The notes: a model not told the origin generated them from the letters alone. Shown: positions 5,606 to 22,628, counted from the stretch's first letter. The stretch: 64,000 nt of DNA from Candidatus Marinacidobacterales bacterium (GCA_965219415.1 CBDCNP010000002.1:3392001-3456000), one strand, 5' to 3'. Made by a program: numbers and translations.

Positions 5606-5781
5606 GCATCCGAATCGCGACCGGCAACTCCTTGTCGCCAGGTGGGACCTCGTGGTAGTATCCTCTTTAACCGCCGCGGTTTAATGAACCGCCGGGTGCC
5701 TGGCGTCACTGAACGATCGGTTGTAACTCATCGCCGGACACTCGTTTTGACCCTGGCCCAAGCTTCTCGAGAAACGGAAGT

Positions 5782-6928
5782 ATGCAGAAGAAGCAAATAG
5801 GCAAGTACACCGTCGTCGGAAAGGTCGGCGAGGGTGCGATGGGTGAAGTCTTCAAGGCACACGATCCGGTTCTCAACCGGTTCGTCGCCATCAAAACCAT
5901 CGTCTCTAGCCTCGACACGCAAGACGACCTCCGCCAGCGCTTCCAACGAGAGGCGCAAGCCGCCGCGCAGCTCAATCATCCCAACATCGTCGCCGTCTAC
6001 GATTTCGGGGAAGACAAAGGCAAAATCTTTATGGCGATGGAGCTGCTCGAGGGTACCGATCTCCGCGAGATCATTCGCTAAAAAGTCGCTCACCCTCAAC
6101 GAGAAGCTTCGCATGATGGAGCAGGTGTGCACCGGGCTCAGCTTCGCTCACGAGAAGGAAATCGTCCACCGCGACCTCAAGCCAGGGAACATCCATGTCT
6201 TGCCCAACGGGCAGGTCAAGATCATGGACTTCGGCCTGGCACGGCTCGCGTCTCCCGAAATGACCAAGACCGGCTTGATCCTGGGCACTCCCAATTATAT
6301 GTCTCCGGAGCAGGTGCAGGCGAAGCGTGTAGACGTGCGCTCGGACATCTTTTCCTTGGGTGCGGTGTTCTACGAGTTGATGAGCTACCAAAAACCCTTC
6401 AGCGCCGAGTCCATCCACGCCACCATGTTCAAAGTGGTCCAATGTGAGGGCCAGCCGCTCGACGAGTTGGTTCCCAGCCTGCCACGACCTTTCATTGAAG
6501 TCGTGGACAAAGCGCTGCAAAAAGAACCCGGCGATCGGTTTCAGAACGCCGGCGAAATCGCCCGGGCCCTCCAGGCTCTGCGTCAGGAGCTGGGCGGATC
6601 CTCCGAAGGTGTGGCGAGCCAATGGGAGACGGTGCTTCAGGAGACCGTCGTCGCTGACCCTGCTCAACTGAATCAACCCTCGCCTTCCCGTGTCTCCTCG
6701 GTGGCCTCTCGCGCATCTCTAGCATCGCGAGCACCGGCAGCCCGTGAAGGCTCCGGGTCGGGCGCATAGATTGGTTCGGGCTCACGGCAAAGCCTTGGCA
6801 CTCTCCGGGAAGCGCAGCTCGCCCGCTCCCAGGCCCGAGGTGGGAACACCACCTGGTACGTCGGCGGCGCTTTGGCTCTCGCCGTCATCGGCGCGGTCGG
6901 GTATTTCGCCCTGCGTGGAGAAAGCTAG
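5782..6928 (+). pseudogene. Hanks-type Ser/Thr protein kinase; frameshift near 6079 and in-frame TAG at 6767-6769
   Basis: GEGAMGEV and VAIK in the first frame; HRDLKPGN, DFG and GTPNYMSPEQ in the second; the frame continues past the TAG to a transmembrane-like helix ending at 6928. Confidence 0.8.
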
Positions 6929-6997
6929 GGCCGTCCTGTACTAGATGGCGGGCCGTTAGACGGCGAGCCAGACGCCGTTTTCCGCTACAATCTCACT

Positions 6998-8053
6998 ATG
7001 TCCTCCATCTGGCCAGGCTTGATCGCGCGGTACGGAGATTGGCTTGAGATCTCCACCGATGCGAAGCCAGTCACACTGCTCGAGGGAAACACTCCGCTCA
7101 TTCCCCTTCCCCGACTCGCATCCGAGCTCGGTGCGGAAGCCGTCTACTTGAAGTACGAGGGCCTCAACCCCACTGGCTCGTTCAAAGATCGAGGTATGAC
7201 GGTAGCGATCACGGATGCCGCACACCGTGGCGCTCAAGCCGTGATCTGTGCCAGCACCGGAAATACCGCGGCGAGCGCTGCCGCCTACGCGGCGAGAGCG
7301 GGACTCCGCTGTTTCGTGGTCGTTCCCGAAGCCAACGTGGCCGCCGGAAAGTTGGCCGGTGCGCTGGCCCATCGCGCCGAGATCGTGCAGCTTCAGGCGT
7401 CTTTCGACCAAGCGCTCGACCTGGTGCGGACCGCTTCGGAGCGATTACCCCTGGCTCTCGTCAATTCGCTCAACCCGTACCGCATTGAAGGACAGAAAAC
7501 GGTCGCCTTCGAGATCATCGAAGCCTTGGGGCGCGCACCCGATTGGATGGCTCTTCCCGTCGGCAATGCCGGAAACATCACGGCGGCGTGGAAGGGCTTC
7601 CTCCAACACCACGAATTGCACGGTACCGACAGACCGAAACTGCTCGGCGTGCAGGCCGCGGGTGCGGCACCCCTCGTTCTCGGCCATCCGGTGGACGATC
7701 CCTCGACGGTGGCGACGGCGATCCGAATCGGACGACCGGCTCGCGGCGAAGAAGCTCTCTCCGCAGCAGAGGAATCCGGTGGGCGTATCATCGCTTGTCC
7801 TGACGAAACGATCCTCGCCGCACAAGAACGACTCGCCTCCTCTGGTATTTGGGTCGAACCGGCGTCGGCTGCGGGAGTCGCCGGCCTCGTCCAAGAAACT
7901 TCCGCGCGGCGTCTCGACGTTACGGGCCAGACGATCGTATGTATTGCTACCGGACACGGGCTCAAAGACCCCGGCATCGTCACCAATCGCTATCCTATGC
8001 CACCGACTATCCCCGCTGACTTCGCCGCCCTCGAAAAGAAACTCAGTTCATGA
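6998..8053 (+). CDS. thrC: Threonine synthase
   Basis: NPTGSFKDRG PLP lysine; CASTGNT; PVGNAGN; overlaps thrB (ATGA). Confidence 0.92.
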   Translation: MSSIWPGLIARYGDWLEISTDAKPVTLLEGNTPLIPLPRLASELGAEAVYLKYEGLNPTGSFKDRGMTVAITDAAHRGAQAVICASTGNTAASAAAYAARAGLRCFVVVPEANVAAGKLAGALAHRAEIVQLQASFDQALDLVRTASERLPLALVNSLNPYRIEGQKTVAFEIIEALGRAPDWMALPVGNAGNITAAWKGFLQHHELHGTDRPKLLGVQAAGAAPLVLGHPVDDPSTVATAIRIGRPARGEEALSAAEESGGRIIACPDETILAAQERLASSGIWVEPASAAGVAGLVQETSARRLDVTGQTIVCIATGHGLKDPGIVTNRYPMPPTIPADFAALEKKLSS

Positions 8054-8976
8054 AGCCGGTCATCGCTAGTGCCCCCGCGTCCACGGCCAACCTAGGACCA
8101 GGATTCGATTGTCTGGGACTCGCGGTGAATCTTTGCAATACCGTCAAGATGAGCCCGGCGAAGGAGGGAGTGCGCGTCGAGATCGAAGGAGAAGGATCGG
8201 CGAGCCTGCCTCGAGGCGCCAGAAACTTGATGGTGCGCGCGGCTCGGAGGGTGTTCGATCTCGTCGGCAAAGCTCCGTCCGGAATCAGCTTGGAAGTAAC
8301 GAACCAGATCCCTTTGGGGTCGGGTCTCGGCTCATCGGCCGCCGCGGTGGTGGTAGGCATGGCCGCCGCCAATGCGATGAGCGGGGGGAAACTGAAGCAG
8401 GAAGATCTGTTGCAGTTGGCCTACAACATGGAGGGACACCCGGACAACGCTGCGGCGTCTCTTTTCGGTGGACTGAACCTGGTCAGCGTGGGTTCGGGCA
8501 CCGCGGTCGCTCGCCAAGTTCGGGTGGCGGACTTCAAGCTCATTGTCGCCCTGCCGCTGGTCAAGATCTCTACCAAGGAAATGCGGCGAGCGTTGCCGCG
8601 TCGCGTGCCGCTCAGAGACGCCGTTTTCAACGTAGGGCGGGCTCTGTTCACCGTCGAGGCGCTAAGAACCGGGGACTACGAACTGCTCGGGGTAGCGATG
8701 GTGGATCGACTGCACCAGAATTATCGCCTGAAGTTCATCCCCGGGGGAGAAGCGGCGATGTCCGCGGCGCGGAAGGCCGGCGCAGCAGCGGTTACGTTGT
8801 CCGGCTCGGGACCGGCCATTGTCGCCTTTGCACCCGATAGGCACGAGCGTATCGCGAGAGCGATGGCACGGACCTTCAAAGGCGCGGGGCTCAAGGTCAA
8901 AACATTCCTCCTCGACATCCATCGGCAGGGGACCCGGGTTCAGCCCTCAAAGGAGAGCGGCGCCCGACCCTCATGA
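8050..8976 (+). CDS. thrB: Homoserine kinase
   Basis: PASTANLGPGFDCLG, GLGSS, EGHPDN and LSGSGP motifs. Confidence 0.95.
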   Translation: MKPVIASAPASTANLGPGFDCLGLAVNLCNTVKMSPAKEGVRVEIEGEGSASLPRGARNLMVRAARRVFDLVGKAPSGISLEVTNQIPLGSGLGSSAAAVVVGMAAANAMSGGKLKQEDLLQLAYNMEGHPDNAAASLFGGLNLVSVGSGTAVARQVRVADFKLIVALPLVKISTKEMRRALPRRVPLRDAVFNVGRALFTVEALRTGDYELLGVAMVDRLHQNYRLKFIPGGEAAMSAARKAGAAAVTLSGSGPAIVAFAPDRHERIARAMARTFKGAGLKVKTFLLDIHRQGTRVQPSKESGARPS

Positions 8977-8984
8977 TTCAGGCT

Positions 8985-10362
8985 CTACGGCGCTAGCGAT
9001 CCGAAGACCACCTCGCCACCTAGCACGGTGGCGACAACCTTGATTTCATTGATGTCTTCGGCCGGAACGGTGAGGATGTCCTCCGCCAAGACGACAAAGT
9101 CCGCGTACTTCCCTGGCTCGATCGAACCCTTCTTGTGCTCCTCGAAAGTCGTGTAAGCGGATTGGTGCGTGATGGCCCGGATGGCCTCCTCGCGGGAGAT
9201 CCCTTGGTCGGCACCGAGGACATCCCCCCAGCCGGTCTGACGGGTAACCGCTATATCGATCTGCATCAAAGGGGTCGAACGAACAGAAATAGGCCGGTCG
9301 GCTCCCAGCGTCGTCATGACGCCGTTGTCCATCCAGTCCCTAAGTCGGTAGGACATGTCTGCTAGTGGCTTACCCCAATATTCTATGAACTTGTCTCCGA
9401 TAATGTAGTTGTGCCGAGGCTGCGCGTTCACGATCAATTCGAGTTCTTTGATCCGATCGTACTGATCCGGCTGCAGCAGTATGGCGTGATCGAGCATCCA
9501 ACGCTTACCGGCGATAGGAGTTTGAGCATTTGCGTATTCGAACGCCTCCAACGCCAGGTCGATCGCCGCGTCACCCACTACGTGTGGACCGGGACGCCAA
9601 CCATGGCGAGCTGCGGCGGCTACGAACATATTGAACTGTTCCTGGGGGACGACCAGCACCCCATGGTAATCGGGACGGCCCTTGTAGCCCCCTCGAAGAA
9701 ACGCCGACTCCTCCGCGCCGTCGAGTGTCAGCTCGGCAAGCCCGTCGGCGCGAAACATCCCGTCACCCCATGTCTCCCCCGGAGGGCCTGCGCCTCGAAG
9801 ACCGCGTCGACTTCCTCTTCGGGTGTGTTCGGGTCGACGTCGTAGCACCAATCCACGCGGGCGGTCAACTCCCCTTTGTCATAGAGCTCCCGCAGCATTT
9901 CGACCTGTTCCCTCGTACCTCCGCCCTCCCGAAAGCTCGTCATGCCCCAACTGTTCACCCGCCGAATTGCCTGAAGGATGCCGTCGAGCTGTTGCTCTCG
10001 GGTCAGTTTGGGAACATATTGGAGCAACGGGGCATGCGCCGCCTTTAGAAGAAACCCGGTGGGCTCGCCGTCCTCGCCCTTCCAGATCTCGCCCCCGGGG
10101 GGATCCTTTGTCTCCTTCGTGTAGCCCAGACTCTCGAGCGCCAAGCTGTTGACGATGTTGTAATGCCCGCCTCGTAGGACTACTGGGTTTTTCGGGGACA
10201 CCGGGTCGAGATCGTGGCGGTTCGGCAAACGCCCGTCCGCTAGCATGAACTGCCACCAACCGCCCTCACTAAAGATCCACTCGCCTGGCTCAGAACTCGC
10301 CACGCGCTCGGCAACGACCTCTTGGATGTCAGCGATGGACTCCACAGAAGTGAGATCGATTG
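8985..10362 (-). pseudogene. 3' part of a YtcJ-like amidohydrolase_3, split by IS5; also frameshifted near 9786
   Basis: GEPTGFL, HVVGDAA, DHA and KGSIEPGKYADFVVL motifs; the 5' part lies at 32492-32828. Confidence 0.85.
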
Positions 10363-11449
10363 TGCCTTGGTGCACAACTCTCGATCTCGGTCCACAATTG
10401 TCCTGTACTCGCGGATACGAGGTTCCCCATGAGCATTTTCAAACGCACTCAGCGGAAGTATGTGAAGAAGGCCTATCGCGTGAGGAATTGGCGTGAATAT
10501 GAGGCGGGTCTACGCAACCGCGGGAGCCTGACCGTCTGGATCTCGCTCACCGCCGGGAAGCTTGTGAACTGGGACGCGTCCCGGCCAAGGAGGAGGAAAC
10601 CGGGCCGTCAACGCAAATACTCGAACCACGCCATCGAGACGGCTGTCACCCTGGGCATGGTGTTTCATCTGTCATCTAGGCAGAGCGAGGGATTGCTGCG
10701 GTCGTTGTTCGCTCTGATGAAGCTAGACAATGATGTGCCCGATCACACCACGATCTCGAGGCGCAAGCCGAAGCTGGGTAAGGTCCCCTTCTACCCAGTC
10801 AAGCAGAAGACGCCGTTGCACATCTTGATCGACAGCAGCGGTCTCGCTGTCCACGCCGGCCAGCTGCGCAGAGCACAAAAGAGCAGGGACTATCGCAAGC
10901 TCCATCTGTGTGTCGACGAGCAGAGTGGCGAAGTCGTCGCCGGCGAGCTGACGAGCAAAAGAGCCCGCGATTCATCGCGGGTTGCATCGCTTGTCGGACA
11001 GATCGACAGTCCCATCTCATCGGCCAGAGCTGACACCGCATACGACGCCGGCGGCGTCTATGAGGCAATCGAGAATCACAGCGCTCATCGCTCGCCGAGG
11101 GTGCTGATACCGCCGCGCAAGGGCGCCCTGCTCGCATCGGGGCCGGCGAGCAGCCGACAGCGCAATCGCAACATTGCAGCACAAGCTCGGCTCGGCAAAC
11201 GAAAGTGGCACACAGAATCGGGCTACAGCAAACGGAGCAAAGTCGAGACAACGTTCCATCGCTACAAGGCTATCGTGGGCTCAGCGATGCGAGCGAGAGG
11301 GTTGGCGGCACAGAGAGGTGAGGCAAGGATCGGGTGCAAGATTCTCAACACCATGACGGTGCTCGGGATGCCTGATAGCGAGATGATCGGATGATGGGAG
11401 TCGGGGCCAAGCGAGCTCTCGGCCTCTATCGGAGTTGTGCACCAAGGCA
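10363..11449 (+). mobile_element. IS5 family (IS903-type) element, copy 1; transposase 10429-11394
   Basis: 18-bp perfect terminal inverted repeat TGCCTTGGTGCACAACTC; NW.EYE.GL..RGSL, IDSSG and YSKRSKVET motifs. Confidence 0.92.
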
Positions 11450-15021: not shown

Positions 15022-16101
15022 ATGCCCGCACCCGAAGCCGATACCATGAGGGCGGTCGTGATCCATGAGCATGGCGGACCGGAAGTACTCAAGCTCGAGC
15101 CGGCGTGGCCGCGACCGAAAGCCGGGCCGGGTGAGATTCGTGTCAAGATCAAAACTTGTGCCCTGAACTTTCTGGACATCTTCGTTCGCAACGGGATGCC
15201 GGGCGAACCTACGCCTCTTCCTCACATCACCGGCGGTGATATTGCCGGCGTGGTCGATTCGGCCGGGGAGAATGTGACTCGACCAGCGGTAGGCGATCGT
15301 GTGCTTCTCAATCCCACCTGGGGATGCGGCACGTGCGAGTACTGCCTCGAGGGTCAGACACCGCGGTGTCTGCGGATACACATGTTGGGCGAGGTTGAGC
15401 CCGGCGGCCTCGCGGAATATGTGGTTTGCCCCGCCGGTCAAGCGATCTTGATTCCCGCGGGTTACTCGTTCGACGACGCCGCGTGCTTGCCGGTTACCTA
15501 CGGGACCGCCTGGCGCATGGTGGTCACCCATGGGCGTGTGAAGCCCGGCGATGCGGTGTTGGTACTCGGCGCTGGAGGCGGCGTTGCGGTGGCCGCGATT
15601 CAAATCGCCAAGCTCCTGAACGCTCGGGTGATCGCCACCGCGTCCACCCAGCAAAAGCTAGATCGTGCGAAGGAGTTCGGAGCCGACGACGTCATTAATT
15701 ATGTCGAGGATAAAGAGTGGGACCAGACGGTTCGGCGGGTCACCGGAAAACGTGGGGTGGAGGTTGTGATCGAGTCGGTCGGTGCCGCCACCTGGGAACG
15801 TAGCATCCGGGCGCTTGGCAAGGGAGGACGCCTGGTAACCTGTGGCGCCACTTCCGGTCCGATCGGCCTCACCGACATCCGTTATCTATTCCGCCGCGAG
15901 CAGAAACTTCTGGGCAGTAACGGTTGGACTCACGAGGAGCTCGAGGAAGTCACCGCCCTAGCCTCCGAAGGCAAGCTTTGCCCGGTCGTGGATCGAACGC
16001 TACCCCTCGAACGCACCGCCGAAGGAGAGATCGCTCTCGAGAAACGCGAAGTCTTCGGCAAAGTCGTCATCCGACCGGAGAGTGGAGATGCTCCCCGATA
16101 A
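15022..16101 (+). CDS. Zinc-binding alcohol dehydrogenase (MDR family)
   Basis: CGTCEYC...C structural zinc site; GAGGGV; CGATSG. Confidence 0.88.
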   Translation: MPAPEADTMRAVVIHEHGGPEVLKLEPAWPRPKAGPGEIRVKIKTCALNFLDIFVRNGMPGEPTPLPHITGGDIAGVVDSAGENVTRPAVGDRVLLNPTWGCGTCEYCLEGQTPRCLRIHMLGEVEPGGLAEYVVCPAGQAILIPAGYSFDDAACLPVTYGTAWRMVVTHGRVKPGDAVLVLGAGGGVAVAAIQIAKLLNARVIATASTQQKLDRAKEFGADDVINYVEDKEWDQTVRRVTGKRGVEVVIESVGAATWERSIRALGKGGRLVTCGATSGPIGLTDIRYLFRREQKLLGSNGWTHEELEEVTALASEGKLCPVVDRTLPLERTAEGEIALEKREVFGKVVIRPESGDAPR

Positions 16102-17632
16102 TTTGGGGCATATTTTCGACGTCCCGTTACGCCTCACCCCCGACGAGCCCGCCGTCTTCCAGGACGACACCGTACTCTCGTTCCAAAACCTTGAGGCTCG
16201 ATGCAATCGAATGGCCAACGCACTCCGCGGGATTGGTGTCGCGGAGGGCGAGCGAGTGGCGCTGATGTTCAGCAACGATTACCGCTTCTTGGAGTCCGCT
16301 TTCGGCCCGATGCGCCTCGGGGCGGTCCCCGTTCCGCTCAACACGCGGATGAGCGATGCAGCCTTGAGCTACGTGCTTCAGGACTCGGAGGCGTCGGTTC
16401 TCATCGCCAATCGGGATATGGCCGATCGCGCGCGTCTACTCGCGAAGGATGTTCAGGGGTTGAAGAACATCATCGTGGATGCTCCGGCAGGAGAAGGATT
16501 TCTCTCCTATGACCGATTCCTCGAATCGCAGCCCGATAGCCTCGAGCGACGGCGCACCGACCCCGACGAGATCTGCATGCAGCCATACACCTCCGGTTCG
16601 ACGGGTAAGCCGAAGGGTGTCCTTCTTACCCACGGCGGCCAGATTTGGAACACCGACATCTTGCGCAAGGCCTTTCACGCAGACCAGAGCGAGCGAGCCC
16701 TAATCTCCGTGCCGCTCTATCACAAGAACGCGATGATCGGCGCGGTCAAGCCCTTCTTGCTCGCCGGCGGATCACTCGTTATCTTGCCCGGCTTGGATCC
16801 GCTTCAGGTCATCGAGGCCATCGAGCGACATCGCGTGACCTATCTCACGGGCGTGCCGGCGATGTACAAAATGGTCCTCGCGGAAAAGGAGGCGCTGGCT
16901 CGGCACGACGTGAGCTCCATCCGCTACGCCGTCTGCGGGTCGGCCGAAGTCCCCGAGGAGCTTCTAGAAGAGTTCGGGCGTGTTTTTGGTGCGCCCATGG
17001 CGGAGAGCTACGGTCTCACTGAGGGTGGGCCCGTGCCGATCGTGAATTCGCGTTGGGGACTCAAGAAGCGAGGAAGTTGTGGGACTGCCTTTCCAGGTTG
17101 CGACGTGAAGCTAGTTGCCAAAGACGGATCGACGGAAGTGCGCGCGAACGAAGTCGGAGAGTTGGTCACGCGCAACCCCGGCCTCGCGAAAGGTTACTGG
17201 AAGCGGCCGGAAGCAACGGCGGAGAGATTCCGTGACGGTTGGCTTTACACCGGAGACCTGATGCGCCGAGACGAGGACGGCTTCTACTACTTCTTGGGGC
17301 GGAAAGACGACATGATCAATGTGGGCGGCGAGAATGTCTATCCGAAAGAGGTCGAGGACATTCTTCTGAGGAATCCTCAACTAAGGGACGCTTGCGTCGT
17401 CCCGGTGCAGCACGCGGTGAAAGGTGCGGTACCCGTGGCCTTTGTCGTGGAGCGGACCGAGGGGCAAACTTCGGAAGAGGAGGTCAAGGCCTTTTTCCTC
17501 GAGAACGGAGCGGCTTACGCTCATCCGAGGCACGTCTTTTTTCTCGAGCGCCTACCGCTAGGCGGTACCGGAAAATTGGACCGTGCCGCCCTCCGCGCAT
17601 TGGCGGAGGAGAGAGTGAGCAATCGGGAATGA
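16082..17632 (+). CDS. Acyl-CoA synthetase (AMP-forming)
   Basis: YTSGSTGKPKG, YGLTE, TGDL and GRKDD motifs. Confidence 0.9.
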   Translation: MEMLPDNLGHIFDVPLRLTPDEPAVFQDDTVLSFQNLEARCNRMANALRGIGVAEGERVALMFSNDYRFLESAFGPMRLGAVPVPLNTRMSDAALSYVLQDSEASVLIANRDMADRARLLAKDVQGLKNIIVDAPAGEGFLSYDRFLESQPDSLERRRTDPDEICMQPYTSGSTGKPKGVLLTHGGQIWNTDILRKAFHADQSERALISVPLYHKNAMIGAVKPFLLAGGSLVILPGLDPLQVIEAIERHRVTYLTGVPAMYKMVLAEKEALARHDVSSIRYAVCGSAEVPEELLEEFGRVFGAPMAESYGLTEGGPVPIVNSRWGLKKRGSCGTAFPGCDVKLVAKDGSTEVRANEVGELVTRNPGLAKGYWKRPEATAERFRDGWLYTGDLMRRDEDGFYYFLGRKDDMINVGGENVYPKEVEDILLRNPQLRDACVVPVQHAVKGAVPVAFVVERTEGQTSEEEVKAFFLENGAAYAHPRHVFFLERLPLGGTGKLDRAALRALAEERVSNRE

Positions 17633-18024
17633 GTGGAAACGACATCCGCATCGACGATTCTCCTTACCAGCGGTTTCTAGGAGTCGAGATGGTTCGCAGC
17701 GAGGACGGCTTGGTGGAGATCCGATTGCCCTTCCGCGATGAATTTCTGAGACAAGACGGATCCGACTGGTTGCACGGTGGTGTGATCAGCTCTCTCATCG
17801 ACTTAGCTGGCGATTATGCGATCACTACCAAGGCCAGCGGCAACATCCCGACTATCGATCTTCGAATCGATTTTCTCCGTCCGGCCCGTAAAGGAGATCT
17901 CGTCGCCATCGGACGCACCGTTAAGGTCGGTCGCACCATCGGCGTGGCCGACGTCGAGGTTCGAGATTCCAGTGGAGCATTGATCGCCGTGGGGCGCGGC
18001 ACCTATGCCGTGCAGAAGTCTTAA
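17629..18024 (+). CDS. PaaI family thioesterase
   Basis: LHGGVISSLID and TIDLRIDFLRPA; ATGA overlap with the ligase stop. Confidence 0.88.
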   Translation: MSGNDIRIDDSPYQRFLGVEMVRSEDGLVEIRLPFRDEFLRQDGSDWLHGGVISSLIDLAGDYAITTKASGNIPTIDLRIDFLRPARKGDLVAIGRTVKVGRTIGVADVEVRDSSGALIAVGRGTYAVQKS

Positions 18025-19334
18025 CGGCGGAGAATGGGAAGAGCCAGCGGCGGAGTGTTGATGAAATCCAGCGCTCTCATCTCGCTCAACGCTTTCTTGA
18101 GCGCGGGAAGGGGAGTGGGGTCGACCGAGATGACGAACGGCAAGTTGTCTCGCTCCCGCCAGCTTTCCTGTAGCACCGAATCGATGTTGATCTTGTGACG
18201 ACCCAGGATCTCGGCGAGGGTGGCAATAATCCCCGGTTGGTCGCGGATGAAGAACCTTACGTAGAAGGGCCAGCTTTCGAGCGGCGAGAAATCGTCTGCG
18301 TCCCCACTGTTTTGGGCCTGTGGTGCGGTGAAGACCGTTTTTCCTTGCCGCCAGCGAGCGGCATTCAGGATGTCGGCCACCACGGACACCGCGGTCGGAT
18401 TCCCTCCTGCCCCTTCCCCGCTGAAGAGGGCGGAGCCGAGCCGCGCGCCAGTAACCTCGATCGCGTTCACAACTCCCGAGATCTTCGACAAGGTAAGCTG
18501 TTTATCGATCAAGAAGGGGCTCGCCCACATCGAGACATTTTTCTCGCCGAGGCTTGCCACGCCCAGCATGCGTATTGTCGTCCCCAGTCGGTTGGAGTAG
18601 AGGAAGTCGACCGGATCGATCTCGGATATCCCCTGAGTGGCCAACTGTTCCGGCTTGGCCCATCGACCGAAGGCGAGGGCGGCCAGGATCGTCAACTTGT
18701 CGGCGGTATCCCGGCCGGAGATATCGAGTGAGGGATCGGCCTCGGCATAGCCAAGTTCCTGAGCCTGCGCCAGGACGTCCCGGAACTCGCGGTTCGTAGC
18801 CGCCATCTCCGAAAGGATGAAATTACACGTTCCGTTGAGAATGCCGCGAATAGAGAGGATACGGTCCGCGACCAGGGAGCGTCGCAACAAGCGAAGGATG
18901 GGAATGCCTCCCGCCACCGACGCTTCGAAGCCTAGGTAGGCCTCCCTCTTTTCAGCCAGCTCTAGGTACTGGCTTCCCGAGTCGGCCATCAACTGTTTGT
19001 TGGCGGTCACCACGGCTTTTTTCTTCTGCAAGCCTTCCCGAATGATCCGATCTGCGGGGTCGGCTCCCCCGATCAACTCGACGACGATGTCAGCGGGACT
19101 AGCCAGAAACTCGTCGATCGAATCGGTTACCGCGACGCCGGGCGCTAAAGCGGAGAGATCTTTCTTGCGGTGACTGCGGTCGAAAATCAGGCTGAGCTCG
19201 AGGTCCGAACCACTGGTCTTGCGCAAGCGGGCGCTATCTTCTATTAGTTGCCGGACGACTGCGCGTCCCACGGTGCCTAGACCGGCAAGGGCAATTCGCG
19301 AGCGGGGGAGGGAGCCCTCATCGCTTGTCGACAA
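18021..19334 (-). CDS. hom: Homoserine dehydrogenase with ACT domain
   Basis: GLGTVG, VVTANK, FEASVAGGIP, GILNGTCN and GYAEADP motifs. Confidence 0.95.
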   Translation of the reverse strand: MSTSDEGSLPRSRIALAGLGTVGRAVVRQLIEDSARLRKTSGSDLELSLIFDRSHRKKDLSALAPGVAVTDSIDEFLASPADIVVELIGGADPADRIIREGLQKKKAVVTANKQLMADSGSQYLELAEKREAYLGFEASVAGGIPILRLLRRSLVADRILSIRGILNGTCNFILSEMAATNREFRDVLAQAQELGYAEADPSLDISGRDTADKLTILAALAFGRWAKPEQLATQGISEIDPVDFLYSNRLGTTIRMLGVASLGEKNVSMWASPFLIDKQLTLSKISGVVNAIEVTGARLGSALFSGEGAGGNPTAVSVVADILNAARWRQGKTVFTAPQAQNSGDADDFSPLESWPFYVRFFIRDQPGIIATLAEILGRHKINIDSVLQESWRERDNLPFVISVDPTPLPALKKALSEMRALDFINTPPLALPILRR

Positions 19335-20568
19335 CGCGTTTCCTCTCTAGATTCTCGAGATCGAACTCGCGGTGGATGGCGCGGACGGCGTCGGAAAGTC
19401 GATCGCGGTGGATCACGCAAGCTATCCGGACCTCGGAGCTGCTGATGAGCTCGATGTTGATCCCTTCATCGGCGAGTGCTCGAAACATGCGCGCCGCAAC
19501 GCTGGGCGTGCTGGCGATCCCGGAGCCGATCACGGAGACTTTGGCCACCTCGGTGTCCACCAAAACCTCGGTGGAGCCAACCTCCTCGGCGATCCTGCGG
19601 AGCACTTCCGCCGACTTCTCGGCATCATCTTCGGAGACGATGACGGAGACGTCATTGGATTGGTCATGTCGAATGCCTTGAATGATGAGTCGAATGTTGA
19701 TCCCGACATCGGAGAGCGCGCTCGAAATGTTCGCCGCTACACCCGGTACGTCTTTCACTCGTGTCAAGGCGACCCGCGCCACATTGGGATCGCCGGTACA
19801 ACCGGTTATCGCTACTTTCTCCAACTCTTCCTCCTTGATGATGGTGGTTCCGGGACGATCGTGAAAGCTGGAACGCACCTGCAGCGGAACATTGAATCGG
19901 CTGGCCACTTCGACGGATCGCGGGTGGAGGATCCGGGAGCCTGCTGCCGCAAACTCGAGCATTTCTTCATAGCTTATCCAAGGGAGGAGTCGCGCCTCGG
20001 GGACGATACGGGGGTCGGCGGTGAAGACGCCGTCGACGTCGGTGTAGATTTCACATCCTGGAGCTTCGAGAGCCGCTGCCAAGGCAGTGGCGGTGAGGTC
20101 GGAACCGCCTCGACCAAGAGTGGTGATCTCGTCGTCGGAAGTCACGCCCTGGAAGCCAGCAACGATGACGATTTCTCCTCGCCCGAGGATATTTAGGATC
20201 TTTTGGGTAGAGATTTCCTGAATGCGGGCACGCGTGAAGTTGCCATCGGTTCGAATCCCGCACTGGGCACCGGTGAGTGCCGTCGCCTTTCCTCCATGCT
20301 CTTGAACCGCCATTGCCAACAAAGCAATAGAGATCTGTTCGCCCGTCGTCAGCATCATGTCCAGCTCGCGAGCTTGAGGCTTGCTCGTCACGCGCCGCGC
20401 CATGCTGAGAAGTTGTTCGGTGGTATCGGCCATGGCGGAAGCCACGACCACTTGAGGAGCTCCCCGACGGTGCTCTTCTACTAGATCCTTGGCTACTCTG
20501 CGGATTCTCTCCGGCGACCCAACGGAAGTCCCACCGTACTTCCTTACACGAGTACGCCGGCCGATCAT
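19318..20568 (-). CDS. lysC: Aspartate kinase
   Basis: KYGGTSV, TTLGRGGSD and YTDVDGVFTADP motifs; two ACT domains. Confidence 0.95.
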   Translation of the reverse strand: MIGRRTRVRKYGGTSVGSPERIRRVAKDLVEEHRRGAPQVVVASAMADTTEQLLSMARRVTSKPQARELDMMLTTGEQISIALLAMAVQEHGGKATALTGAQCGIRTDGNFTRARIQEISTQKILNILGRGEIVIVAGFQGVTSDDEITTLGRGGSDLTATALAAALEAPGCEIYTDVDGVFTADPRIVPEARLLPWISYEEMLEFAAAGSRILHPRSVEVASRFNVPLQVRSSFHDRPGTTIIKEEELEKVAITGCTGDPNVARVALTRVKDVPGVAANISSALSDVGINIRLIIQGIRHDQSNDVSVIVSEDDAEKSAEVLRRIAEEVGSTEVLVDTEVAKVSVIGSGIASTPSVAARMFRALADEGINIELISSSEVRIACVIHRDRLSDAVRAIHREFDLENLERKRVVDKR

Positions 20569-21821
20569 GTTGAAGCGCGGGCGGCGTGGACAGGCAGGTG
20601 TTGTTCGTACCACTCGCGGAAAACGCTCAGCCGTGGACGCAGCACGGTATCAACTTTGAGTCGAGAGGAGAACGTATCTAACGCCTTGTAGCCGCTGCCG
20701 GTGATGCCGACGACGATCGTATCTTTTGGATCGATGCGGCCCTGCTCGATGAGCTTCAATGTGACCGCGAGCGTCGTGCCGCCCGCCGGTTCGGTGAAGA
20801 TCCCTTCCTTTTCTGCAAGCAAGTGGACAGCGTCCAGGATCTCTTCGTCGGTGGCCGTCTCTCCCCACCCACCGGTTCGCCGGACTTCCTGGAGCACGTA
20901 CGGACCGTCGGCGGGGTTTCCGATGGCGATCGACTTGGCGATGGTGTTCGGCTTCTCGGGATCGACGAGATCGTCGCCGCGATGAAGCGCGTGCACGACC
21001 GGCGCACAACCTTCCGCTTGCGCACAGTGAATCCGAACATCGCCGGTCGCCCATCCGAGCCGTAATGTTTCGGAGAATGCTTTAGCCACCTTGGGGAGAA
21101 GCGTCCCGCCGGCGGTGGGCAGAACCATGTGGTCGGGAACCTTCCAGCCGAGCTGCTCCACGATCTCGAAGCCCATCGTCTTGGCGCCCTCCGTGTAGTA
21201 GGGACGCAGATTAACGTTGACGAAGCCCCATCCGTACTCGTCGCCGATCTCACAACACAGACGGTTGACGTCGTCGTAATTTCCCTCGAGGGCAACGATT
21301 TGCGGCTTGTAGATCAGCGAACCGGTGATCTTCGGTGTTTCGATATCTTGGGGGATAAAGACAAGACTGGGAAATCCGGTGCGAGCACAATGAGCGGAAA
21401 GAGCGTTTCCCAGATTGCCAGTGGAAGCGCAGGCGAAGACCCGGTAGCCGAGCTCGGCTCCTCGAGTCAAGGCGATAGAGACCACACGATCTTTGTACGA
21501 AAGGGAAGGGTGGTTCACCGTCTCGTCTTTCAGGTAGAGATTGGGAGCGCCAAGATACTCGCCGAGACGTTTGGCGTGGACTAGGGGAGTGTAGCCGGAG
21601 TGCTGACCGGTTATGGGCTCGCCCGTTACAGGAAGCAACTCCCGGTAACGCCAGAGGTTCTGCTCTCGGCTGGAGATGCGGTCCGGTCCGGTATCGGCTC
21701 CGATCCGGTCGTAGTCATAGACCACTTCCAACGGACCGAGACACTCCGAACAGTAGAAACGACGGTCGGCGGGGTAGGCGGCCCCACACTCCTTGCACTC
21801 CAAGCCCTTGAGATAACTCAT
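20565..21821 (-). CDS. Threonine synthase-like PLP enzyme (second paralogue, with N-terminal zinc ribbon)
   Basis: CKEC...CSEC; PSLSYKDR; CASTGNL; NLRPYYTEGAKT; clearly divergent from thrC at 6998. Confidence 0.85.
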   Translation of the reverse strand: MSYLKGLECKECGAAYPADRRFYCSECLGPLEVVYDYDRIGADTGPDRISSREQNLWRYRELLPVTGEPITGQHSGYTPLVHAKRLGEYLGAPNLYLKDETVNHPSLSYKDRVVSIALTRGAELGYRVFACASTGNLGNALSAHCARTGFPSLVFIPQDIETPKITGSLIYKPQIVALEGNYDDVNRLCCEIGDEYGWGFVNVNLRPYYTEGAKTMGFEIVEQLGWKVPDHMVLPTAGGTLLPKVAKAFSETLRLGWATGDVRIHCAQAEGCAPVVHALHRGDDLVDPEKPNTIAKSIAIGNPADGPYVLQEVRRTGGWGETATDEEILDAVHLLAEKEGIFTEPAGGTTLAVTLKLIEQGRIDPKDTIVVGITGSGYKALDTFSSRLKVDTVLRPRLSVFREWYEQHLPVHAARAST

Positions 21822-21933
21822 GGTATTCCTTTCGCCGGAGTCGCCTCGGGTTGAGGCAACACGACTCCGTCCATCAAATGGACTATCCTTCGTGCTTTGG
21901 GGCTTCTAGCCTGCCAGTTGGGCCGGGAGCAAC

Positions 21934-21963
21934 AAAAAAGCCCTTCCAATAGTGCGGAAGGGC
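21934..21963 (-). terminator. Intrinsic terminator forming the riboswitch expression platform
   Basis: GCCCTTCC-gcactatt-GGAAGGGC followed by TTTTTT on the minus strand. Confidence 0.88.
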
Positions 21964-21968
21964 CCGGT

Positions 21969-22076
21969 CCTATCTGCCAGGTCGACCCGCTGAGGGCCCC
22001 CCGCGGGAATTAGCACCGGTGCAATGCCGGTTGCTGTGGCATCCAAGGGCCCGATCCCTCTGCCACTCTGGATAAG
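21969..22076 (-). ncRNA. SAM-I (S-box) riboswitch
   Basis: Minus strand reads CTTATCCAGAG.TGGCAGAGGGA.TCGGGCCC..GATGCC.CAGCAACC...GGTGCTAATTCC...AGATAGG, matching the S-box consensus. Confidence 0.93.
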
Positions 22077-22202
22077 TCGCGGGGAGCGTACTCCGGGCCC
22101 TACGAGAAGTCAAGGCCCGCCACGCCACGTTCGGTTAAAGCAACCAAGTCGCTTCGCTTTTGGTTACTTCCGGTTCTCGGCAACCCCGGTGAACGGGTCG
22201 CC

Positions 22203-22628
22203 CTAGAGCGCGAAGCCCATGACACCCTCGGCGGCGAGGACGCCTTCGAGGAATGCCTTCGTTTGGAGGCTTCCCAGGCGACCGCGCATCCGCCGCACGG
22301 TGCCCTCGATTCGGACGGTGACTCCGGCTGGCACCTTCATGTGGAACTCGGCGTGGTTGATCGCCCGAAAGTAGATGGTGCGGCCGCGGTTTTCCTCCGG
22401 ATGCAGAACGAGTATCGCTCCCACTTGGGCCATGGCCTCGATGAGAAGCGTCGGGGGAAAGTACGCTTCCGCTCCAACCTTCAAGAGAAAGATTCCGGTC
22501 TCGGCGATGCGAACGAGCCCAACGACGCGCTCCCTCGGCACGAGCTCGATGACTTCATCGACGAAGAGGAAGGGGTGGCGGTGCGGGAGGATCTTTTCAA
22601 TGGATGCGCGGTCGAAGACAGGACTCAT
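22203..22628 (-). CDS. FabZ-like 3-hydroxyacyl-ACP dehydratase
   Basis: LPHRHPFLFVD and LLIEAMAQ; the usual F.GHFP motif is degenerate. Confidence 0.75.
   Translation of the reverse strand: MSPVFDRASIEKILPHRHPFLFVDEVIELVPRERVVGLVRIAETGIFLLKVGAEAYFPPTLLIEAMAQVGAILVLHPEENRGRTIYFRAINHAEFHMKVPAGVTVRIEGTVRRMRGRLGSLQTKAFLEGVLAAEGVMGFAL

Follow-up and report, generated by a model that had tools for sequence, protein, structure and literature searches.

A SAM-I riboswitch operon with a predicted MetM-type homocysteine synthase and a candidate sulfur carrier fused to MoeZ in an acidobacterial lineage

Results and discussion

Layout of the locus

We analysed a stretch of 64,000 nucleotides from a Candidatus Marinacidobacterales bacterium (GCA_965219415.1, CBDCNP010000002.1:3392001-3456000, or G000:C3:3392001-3456000 in our numbering; called the window below, with positions counted from its first letter), in which a SAM-I (S-box) riboswitch, an RNA that senses S-adenosylmethionine (SAM), stands before a threonine synthase (ThrC)-like gene and the genes lysC and hom. 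An earlier note on this DNA had described the aptamer, its terminator and the coupled operon behind them, together with a canonical thrC-thrB pair at 6998-8976, and our searches recover each of these features. The note had further proposed that the ThrC-like protein, P0001 here, makes homocysteine, which is supported by the clade to which the protein belongs, its linkage to sulfur carriers, the riboswitches and the gene inventory. Taking the evidence as a whole, we consider it probable, though well short of certain, that this is a SAM-repressed methionine operon with a MetM-type homocysteine synthase fed by a fused carrier encoded elsewhere in the genome. The features concerned are the following:

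21967..22078, minus strand: SAM-I (S-box) riboswitch aptamer (RF00162, 67.9 bits, full model)
21928..21965, minus strand: intrinsic terminator, the expression platform, GGGCCCTTCC-GCACTATT-GGAAGGGC followed by a T-run, tail TTTTGTTGCT (terminator scan)
20565..21821, minus strand: metM-like gene for P0001, a ThrC-fold enzyme of the pyridoxal 5'-phosphate (PLP) type, 418 aa (PALP and ThrC models, clade, signature residues)
19318..20568, minus strand: lysC, monofunctional aspartate kinase with two ACT domains (NF005155, 521 bits)
18021..19334, minus strand: hom, homoserine dehydrogenase with a C-terminal ACT domain (NF004976, 411 bits)
6998..8053, plus strand: canonical thrC, 351 aa (TIGR00260, 273.4 bits)
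8050..8976, plus strand: thrB, homoserine kinase (TIGR00191, 254.5 bits)

The aptamer is the only Rfam match in the window. It runs from 22078 to 21967, covers model positions 1-108 of 108 and scores well above the gathering score of the covariance model (44.4; E 1.1e-13); RF00162 matched once in the whole genome of 8.05 Mb in 3 contigs, in a search that scored 150 of 665 first-look candidates. Two bases behind it, on the same strand as the three genes, lies the terminator hairpin (21965-21938; 11 pairs, 6 of them GC, and a loop of 6), followed by TTTTTTG. The minimum free energy fold of the leader recovers this hairpin (z = -2.16); it neither reproduces the aptamer nor resolves an antiterminator pairing, and a sigma-70 promoter scan of 17800-22400 gave 0 sites.

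The TGA stop of the thrC-like gene (20567-20565) overlaps an in-frame ATG (20568-20566) as ATGA, and for this reason we place the start of lysC at 20568 and not at the GTG of the list of open reading frames (ORFs), at 20613. The TTG start of hom (19334) overlaps the end of lysC, whose stop lies at 19320-19318, and is preceded by the Shine-Dalgarno sequence GAGAGGA. The three frames are intact and translationally coupled. A second LysC (G000:C1:412700-414103) and a second Hom (G000:C3:1410356-1411396) are found in a rough ORF set of the genome; together with the position of the operon genes behind the riboswitch, these second copies suggest that the lysC and hom of the operon are SAM-repressed isozymes.

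The ThrC-like protein and its clade

The MetM/MetO pathway, which the earlier note had mentioned as a Streptomyces MetM working with a MoaD-like carrier, is already known and has been in print since 2024. According to papers that cite the original work, MetM, MetO, Mec and MoeZ of Streptomyces albulus form a thiocarboxylate route from O-phospho-L-homoserine to homocysteine, credited to Hasebe et al. 2024 (Hasebe, Adachi, Maruyama, and Hamano, Appl Environ Microbiol 90:e01247-24; cited in bioRxiv 10.1101/2024.10.14.618325; PMC12172450; bioRxiv 10.64898/2026.09.15.751699). Papers citing Hasebe et al. 2024 also describe MetM as a ThrC homologue that is 'often misannotated', place a SAM riboswitch upstream of S. 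albulus metM (PMC12172450), and give 33% identity between MetM and the ThrC of Bacillus subtilis (B. subtilis preprint).

P0001 is homologous to threonine synthase. It scores 234.7 bits against PALP and 258.9 bits against TIGR00260, above the cut-off of the latter, so that annotation pipelines name the gene threonine synthase; against NF006050 it stays under the cut-off (297.5 bits, cut-off 303). It matches the ThrC structure 1uim in the PDB (E 3.5e-50), and it is 37% identical to the canonical ThrC of its own genome, which encodes four ThrC-like genes besides that of P0001, canonical ThrC included. An extra zinc ribbon with four Cys residues forms the N-terminus. When one representative per 50%-identity cluster was searched (about 15 billion proteins), the best matches were 42-49% identical; more similar proteins, 61-93% identical, come from acidobacteria, the nearest being assigned to Vicinamibacteria or Acidobacteriota, and every one of them is named threonine synthase.

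A homologue scan with one genome per species returned 80 loci at 48-74% identity, 79 of which have a callable gene, from phyla that include Acidobacteriota, Binatota, Planctomycetota, Cyanobacteriota, Nitrospinota, Nitrospirota, Verrucomicrobiota, Aquificota, and Actinomycetota. In an IQ-TREE phylogeny (quick, LG+G4) of 46 rows, picked to drop long branches and most cyanobacteria, P0001 lies within a clade of 36 rows, with a Shimodaira-Hasegawa-like approximate likelihood ratio test (SH-aLRT) value of 99 and a stem of 0.69, and the rows outside include canonical ThrC and two paralogues from the same genome. In a FastTree phylogeny of 100 rows, P0001 belongs to a clade of 59 rows (support 96), with canonical ThrC and all three of its own paralogues outside. 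P0001 groups, as the proposal of the earlier note would have it, with a carrier-linked and often SAM-I-controlled clade, and not with canonical ThrC or its own paralogues.

The clade has its own signature residues, at least 93% conserved within it and different in ThrC and in both paralogue groups, in a comparison that took in just two canonical ThrC sequences. P0001 holds 15 of the 15, namely V113, V114, L137, E161, V185, N186, C189, N204, R206, Y209, A237, A267, S297, T350, and F401. In terms of motifs, the clade shows for example KDRVV for KDRGM, STGNL for STGNT, and NLRPYY for SxNPxR. The Arg of the NPxRxEG motif, which we take to be the phosphate-binding Arg in ThrC, is replaced by Tyr in P0001, and a new Arg is found three residues before it.

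At 61 of the 79 clade loci, a CysO/MetO-like carrier gene, identified by homology to the candidate carrier domain of our genome (see below), lies on the same strand, mostly as the next gene. These carriers typically have 90-93 residues and end in PA(V/I)AGG or in AGG followed by 1-8 more residues. Genes for CysM, a JAB protease and a MoeZ-like E1 often belong to the same clusters. A SAM-I riboswitch lies upstream on the same strand at 23 of the 58 clade loci scanned (12/20, 7/20, and 4/18 by batch), that is, at 23 of 48 non-cyanobacterial vs 0 of 10 cyanobacterial loci; the scan left out 22 of the 80 loci, all cyanobacterial.

Some variation within the clade may be recorded here. Stand-alone MetO-like carriers with residues past the Gly-Gly occur at eleven loci (L068, L069, L070, L075, L076, L087, L096, L098, L111, L113, L121), the extra tails being R, K, H, N, AI, RGI, NIN, GHD, ANL, and APCARIHR; the presence of such residues in many MetO-like carriers implies C-terminal processing before activation. 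In one acidobacterial genome, whose MetM-like locus (L137) has an adjacent carrier while the full carrier-MoeZ-rhodanese fusion described below is encoded elsewhere, a marginal SAM-II match (RF00521, 37.5 bits vs a gathering score of 36) is found at 2237-2310, about 1.2 kb upstream of the MetM-like gene. Five acidobacterial loci of a Vicinamibacteria-like sister group (L073, L074, L078, L079, L089) have the MetM-like gene behind thrB, in the orders hom-thrB-metM-like and thrB-metM-like-thrC; neither a SAM-I riboswitch nor an adjacent carrier was found at these loci.

We predict from these sequence comparisons, with good confidence, that P0001 works as a MetM-type homocysteine synthase. Its fit to the MetM family goes through Microcystis: P0001 is 52% identical to the clade member of Microcystis novacekii, and the 'ThrC' of Microcystis aeruginosa is given as 51.6% identical to MetM in PMC12172450. 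Likeness to S. albulus MetM itself is known indirectly, as the 80 loci of the scan include none from Streptomyces.

Methionine genes in the genome and in its relatives

Neither homoserine acyltransferase was found in six-frame searches of the genome, which is 96.3% complete and 8.45% contaminated, in keeping with the route that the earlier note had proposed: the best TIGR01392 match, for MetX, reaches 21 bits, and PF04204, for MetA, gave 0 matches. ThrB is present, and O-phosphohomoserine is therefore the only activated homoserine that is visibly made. The only other match to thrB in the rough proteome scores 42 bits; presumably, the one thrB supplies O-phosphohomoserine to ThrC and to the MetM-like enzyme alike, and the canonical thrC encodes the true threonine synthase. 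A full-length MetH (1696 bits) is encoded for the last step, and the methanogen-type HcyBio/DUF39 route can be set aside, with no match in the genome. The note had also suggested a search for metY and metB; here, three full-length PLP enzymes of Cys/Met metabolism (PF01053) are found, one of them above the NF006097 cut-off.

These PF01053 enzymes are the core of a different explanation, in which P0001 is a second threonine synthase, a deaminase or another O-phosphohomoserine enzyme and homocysteine is made by a plant-like PF01053 protein. Plant cystathionine gamma-synthase is O-phosphohomoserine-dependent, and one of the three could act in this way, as a cystathionine gamma-synthase or as a sulfhydrylase; the one above the NF006097 cut-off reaches 654 bits (cut-off 600). 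The TIGR00260 score of P0001 points in the same direction, as does the thrC-like position of the gene behind thrB at the five Vicinamibacteria-like loci. Moreover, the Microcystis homologue has threonine synthase and deaminase activities in vitro and did not raise methionine in vivo, according to PMC12172450, which is evidence against a uniform function of the clade. On the other hand, there is no regulatory logic in putting a threonine enzyme under a SAM riboswitch, a canonical thrC-thrB pair already exists, and at two of the five loci (L078, L079) the gene stands between thrB and a canonical thrC. The clade also has a tight linkage to genes for sulfur carriers. As the replacement of MetX, the NF006097-type 'cystathionine gamma-synthase family' protein is not supported: among the 31 genomes of the relatives set described below, its orthologues occur in 3 (G000, our own, G001, and G010) and so do not track the loss of MetX, and the other two PF01053 types also have homologues in most MetX-bearing relatives. 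We regard a threonine-type P0001 as improbable.

The relatives set comprises 31 genomes, our own and 30 others, from families f1 (8 genomes) and f2 and f3 (23 together). Orthologues of P0001 at 80% identity or more are present in 5 of the 8 f1 genomes (G000, G001, G002, G003, G006) and in 0 of the 23 f2 and f3 genomes. Strong MetX matches (388-451 bits) show the reverse distribution, 23/23 in f2 and f3 vs 0/8 in f1, with partial matches of 106-113 bits in G001 and G002; MetA is found in 0 of the 31. We read this pattern as the MetM-like route replacing the homoserine-acylation route (MetX) in family f1, which would be consistent with the MetM assignment of P0001. In all four relatives with the orthologue, a SAM-I riboswitch lies upstream of it and lysC adjoins it, vs a riboswitch at 0 of 16 paralogue loci, and no ThiS/MoaD carrier was found at these four loci and their 1.5 kb flanks.

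Outside the family, we sampled 301 Acidobacteriota evenly at a completeness of at least 90%, with thresholds of E <= 1e-110 for MetM-like proteins (the best paralogue in the relatives reaches 1.9e-82) and E <= 1e-80 for MetX, a cut that may miss divergent MetX. MetM-like genes occur in 67 of the 301, a measure of how broadly they are distributed, MetX in 64 and MetA in 28. MetX or MetA accompanies 8 of the 67 MetM-like-positive vs 84 of the 234 MetM-like-negative genomes (overlaps counted by hand). A clean complementarity of MetM and MetX across the phylum was considered and rejected; it is a tendency and not a rule, as 150 of the 234 negatives have none of MetX, MetA and MetM-like at these thresholds. 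Only one locus outside the relatives set, L066 in genome G031, has the full metM-lysC-hom order. Three genomes in our counts are unpublished (G007, G031, G095): without G007 the totals for the relatives are out of 30 and f1 has 7 genomes, without G095 the MetM-like count is 66/300, and without G031 the carrier-less acidobacterial fusion count given below is 4/4.

The genomes that lack every marker bring in another explanation, that homocysteine is not made de novo at all, methionine or homocysteine being salvaged and the operon being a relic or serving another SAM-linked role. The 150 negatives without a recognised homoserine-activation or MetM gene would fit such a life, as would three f1 genomes that lack strong MetX, MetA and the orthologue alike (G004, 73% complete; G005, 96%; G007, 83%). 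A relic is hard to reconcile with three intact, translationally coupled frames, with a riboswitch and gene order kept in 4 relatives at 80-94% protein identity, and with an intact MetH. We consider this explanation very improbable.

A candidate sulfur carrier fused to MoeZ

As the earlier note had observed, the operon contains no sulfur-carrier gene; a six-frame search of the genome with PF02597 gives only two ThiS/MoaD domains, both elsewhere, one being moaD, beside moaE, and the other the N-terminus of a fusion protein. The note had offered a carrier encoded elsewhere or free sulfide as the possible sulfur source. For the former there is now a candidate in a cysM-mec cluster, where a CysO/MetO-like domain forms one protein with MoeZ. 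The fusion has 485 residues, with ThiS at 6-91, ThiF at 113-346, and rhodanese at 385-476, and its cluster, cysM-mec(JAB)-fusion, lies at G000:C3:5353657-5356605, on the same contig as the operon and 1.94 Mb away. The CysM-like and JAB/JAMM genes are upstream of the fusion on the same strand; the CysM-like protein scores 354 bits against TIGR01138 (cut-off 394), and the JAMM motif HSHPDHPAFPSGYD is intact. The carrier domain consists of the first 91 residues, ending in VVSIVPSIAGG, and it aligns end to end with the carriers beside MetM-like genes in other phyla, at 63-101 bits.

A run of 8 G lies exactly at the junction of carrier and MoeZ, where a deletion of one base would give a stop overlapping a GTG start. 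Nevertheless, we reject an assembly frameshift artefact as the origin of the fusion. Within the relatives set, 12 of the 31 genomes have a stop-free fused frame (73-94% identity), as do 5 further acidobacterial genomes, and linker lengths differ among them. In 12 of 12 fusions of the relatives set, VVSIVPSIAGG is invariant and the start of MoeZ is conserved, with a variable linker of 7-16 residues, rich in A, G, T, S, and P, between them; the order cysM-mec-fusion is kept in 11 of the 12.

The fusion accompanies the MetM-like genes that lack a carrier of their own. It is present in 5 of the 5 genomes of the relatives set with a metM-like orthologue, our own included, and in 5 of 5 further acidobacterial genomes (G031-G035) without a carrier beside the MetM-like gene, at 63-69% identity, which makes 10 of 10 carrier-less genomes when both sets are joined. 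Among 12 genomes with an adjacent stand-alone carrier, the full fusion is present in 3 and an E1 that is shorter or not fused in 8, while 1 gave no match. In an uncultured actinomycetote (L092, 1925-6051), the gene order is mec-cysM-metM-like-fusion-NIL, the fusion there being a ThiS::ThiF protein of 355 residues, with no rhodanese. This ThiS::ThiF gene stands directly behind the MetM-like gene, so fused carriers do occur in MetM operons. The NIL protein is found at L085 as well as at L092; a NIL-domain protein is absent from the whole of our genome.

We also predicted the complex of P0001 (alignment of 40 rows) with the carrier domain (alignment of 35 rows), using alignments of our own, for which the calibration of the docking score holds roughly. 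The pair scores 0.38 (runs 0.36, 0.43, 0.38) vs 0.00 for the best of 3 controls, the runs have at least 63% of their contacts in common, and the predicted local distance difference test value of the partner is at least 81. Of 80 solved complexes, 58 reach the pass mark, as do 2 of 110 mismatched pairs; passes at or below 0.60 comprise 7 of the 80 solved complexes and both passing mismatches. The result is a pass of the weak kind, of the sort that is wrong more often than right unless the pair is already likely, and it may owe part of its score to likeness to the CysM-CysO complex, the structure of which has been solved. It shifts our judgement a little and does not count as proof that the two proteins bind.

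In view of these sequence data, we think that the fused carrier is the sulfur donor of P0001, at somewhat better than even odds. The competing explanation is that the MetM-type enzyme uses free sulfide or another small sulfur donor and that the CysO-MoeZ fusion serves just CysM. This would explain why the carrier gene has departed from the operon and its surroundings, and seven f2 genomes indeed have the fusion and no MetM-like orthologue, so that the primary client of the fusion is probably CysM, in cysteine synthesis. The weak docking score would also be expected, and Na2S served another group 'to mimic the MetM activity' (PMC12172450). Against free sulfide, the same-strand carrier kept by 61 of 79 clade members makes carrier use look ancestral, and the fused carrier is found in 10/10 carrier-less genomes vs 3/12 with an adjacent carrier. 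P0001 has also lost none of the clade signature residues, and the carrier::E1 fusion directly after the MetM-like gene at L092 speaks for use of a fused carrier. We therefore judge sulfide as the donor rather unlikely.

Besides the findings already named in favour of other explanations, three points weigh against a MetM-type operon fed by the fused carrier, along with the weakness of the docking result. The link of the fusion to MetM is drawn by exclusion from the sequence inventory, and the related genomes in our counts are not independent observations. The genome is flagged for 8.45% contamination; yet the operon and the fusion share one contig of 5.69 Mb.

Proposed mechanism

We propose the following scheme for the fused-carrier operon. 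At high SAM, the aptamer would fold and the adjacent terminator would end transcription; at low SAM, read-through would allow the three genes to be transcribed and translated together. LysC and Hom, as extra isozymes, would then drive aspartate toward homoserine, which would be phosphorylated by ThrB, whose gene lies 12 kb off beside the canonical thrC. The MetM-like enzyme would carry out a gamma-replacement, exchanging the phosphate of O-phosphohomoserine for sulfur to give homocysteine, and MetH would convert the latter into methionine.

The sulfur donor would most likely be a protein thiocarboxylate on the first 91 residues of the fusion, the sole ThiS/MoaD-type domain in the genome outside molybdenum cofactor synthesis. 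We infer that the JAMM protease could free the carrier from the fusion by a cut after AGG, that the released MoeZ-rhodanese could adenylate and thiocarboxylate the freed carrier, and that this single carrier could serve both CysM, for cysteine, and the MetM-like enzyme, for homocysteine. In its strongest form, all sulfur for cysteine and methionine would pass through one E1-fused, JAMM-released carrier with two PLP clients, in place of the MetX route. This form is tentative, and we give it clearly less than an even chance. The single-carrier scheme would then parallel, in a bacterium, the processing of ubiquitin precursors, joined to a sulfur relay shared by two clients.

Relation to known systems

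The system resembles that of S. albulus in several respects. Here too a misannotated ThrC-homologous PLP enzyme stands under a SAM riboswitch, the genome encodes the JAB protease Mec and an E1 of the MoeZ type that includes a rhodanese domain, and the ubiquitin-like carrier ends in GG, as does MetO, and belongs to the same family as the carriers beside MetM-like genes elsewhere. It differs in that no metO is found beside the enzyme gene, the carrier candidate being fused to MoeZ 1.94 Mb off, in that the operon partners are lysC and hom, and in the absence of a NIL-domain protein.

The second relative is the protein-thiocarboxylate cysteine pathway of Mycobacterium tuberculosis, CysO-CysM-Mec+-MoeZ(R) (PMC3227635). 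Our cluster agrees with it in the CysM-like PLP enzyme, the JAMM protease, the GG-terminated carrier and the rhodanese-bearing E1. Here, however, carrier and E1 form one polypeptide with a variable linker instead of a stand-alone carrier, and we propose that the cluster supplies the MetM-like enzyme as well.

N-terminal fusions of ubiquitin-like (Ubl) domains to ThiF-type E1 proteins were catalogued by Iyer, Burroughs, and Aravind in 2006, and operons with ThiS/MoaD, E1-rhodanese, JAB and cysteine synthase are listed there, an acidobacterium included (PMC1779556). Both the Ubl-E1 architecture and this kind of operon, in which JAB and cysteine synthase occur together, agree with what we observe, and since they were catalogued there, the fusion architecture as such is not new. 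Unlike here, the accessible part of that paper neither ties a fusion to a ThrC-like homocysteine synthase nor proposes a cleavage at the GG.

P0001 has the fold of canonical ThrC (Thermus thermophilus 1UIM; Bacillus subtilis 6CGQ), with the same PLP lysine in S(F/Y)KDR and, presumably, the same substrate, O-phosphohomoserine, and it departs from these enzymes by its N-terminal four-Cys ribbon, the 15 clade-specific substitutions and an identity of about 37% to the ThrC of its own genome. The plant route likewise has O-phosphohomoserine as the branch point between threonine and methionine but uses another enzyme family for the sulfur step. In Escherichia coli, aspartokinase II-homoserine dehydrogenase II (metL) is repressed by methionine via MetJ; our operon would similarly provide methionine-specific aspartate kinase and homoserine dehydrogenase isozymes that are shut off by the end product, though by a riboswitch and not by the MetJ repressor, and with lysC and hom as separate genes. 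The operon would be the riboswitch counterpart of such end-product-specific isozymes.

Neither a metM-lysC-hom operon nor a fused carrier shared between two pathways turned up in the open-access literature searched, which gave the general Ubl-E1 theme (PMC1779556). What is distinctive here is the detached candidate carrier, fused to an E1 and probably shared with cysteine synthesis, together with the replacement of the MetX route in the family. The variant would be a natural test of whether MetM needs a dedicated MetO, shares the cysteine carrier or takes sulfide, and the conserved carrier-E1 fusion beside a JAMM protease would make a tractable case of bacterial ubiquitin-like precursor processing. 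As metA and metX are absent and annotation pipelines name the gene threonine synthase, metabolic reconstructions would score these common soil Acidobacteriota as methionine auxotrophs.

Other ThrC-like genes and neighbouring genes

The other three ThrC-like paralogues of the genome were considered as MetM candidates and rejected, since all fall outside the clade and have no carrier or riboswitch nearby: L010 (426 aa), L011 (395 aa, between frr and an AlaX-like gene), and L012 (374 aa, of archaeal type). At L010 (G000:C1:463000-480000; 5690-10551, minus strand), the zinc-ribbon ThrC-like gene of 426 aa and a PALP gene of 438 aa stand in tandem, co-directional with genes for YqeC, a MobA-like nucleotidyltransferase and XdhC, a context that resembles the maturation of selenium-dependent or molybdenum hydroxylases. 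In f1 relatives (L055-L058), the ThrC-like gene of L010 is kept, and it forms a separate clade.

On the plus strand of the window, a gene for a 4HBT hotdog thioesterase (131 aa, 17629-18024) converges on hom with an end overlap of 4 bases. An acyl-CoA ligase gene (516 aa) is joined to it by an ATGA overlap, the pair spanning 16082-18024.

At L011 (G000:C1:1292000-1309000; 8396-9583, plus strand), the ThrC-like gene lies in the rpsB-tsf-pyrH-frr cluster, the AlaX-like neighbour being of the tRNA_SAD/DHHA1 type. Homologues of this type are found in all three related families, and matches with an in-frame TGA or TAG occur in four f2 genomes, one f1 genome and one f3 genome. A gene for an ISL3-family transposase (L011, 5102-6331, plus strand) lies between rpsB and tsf.

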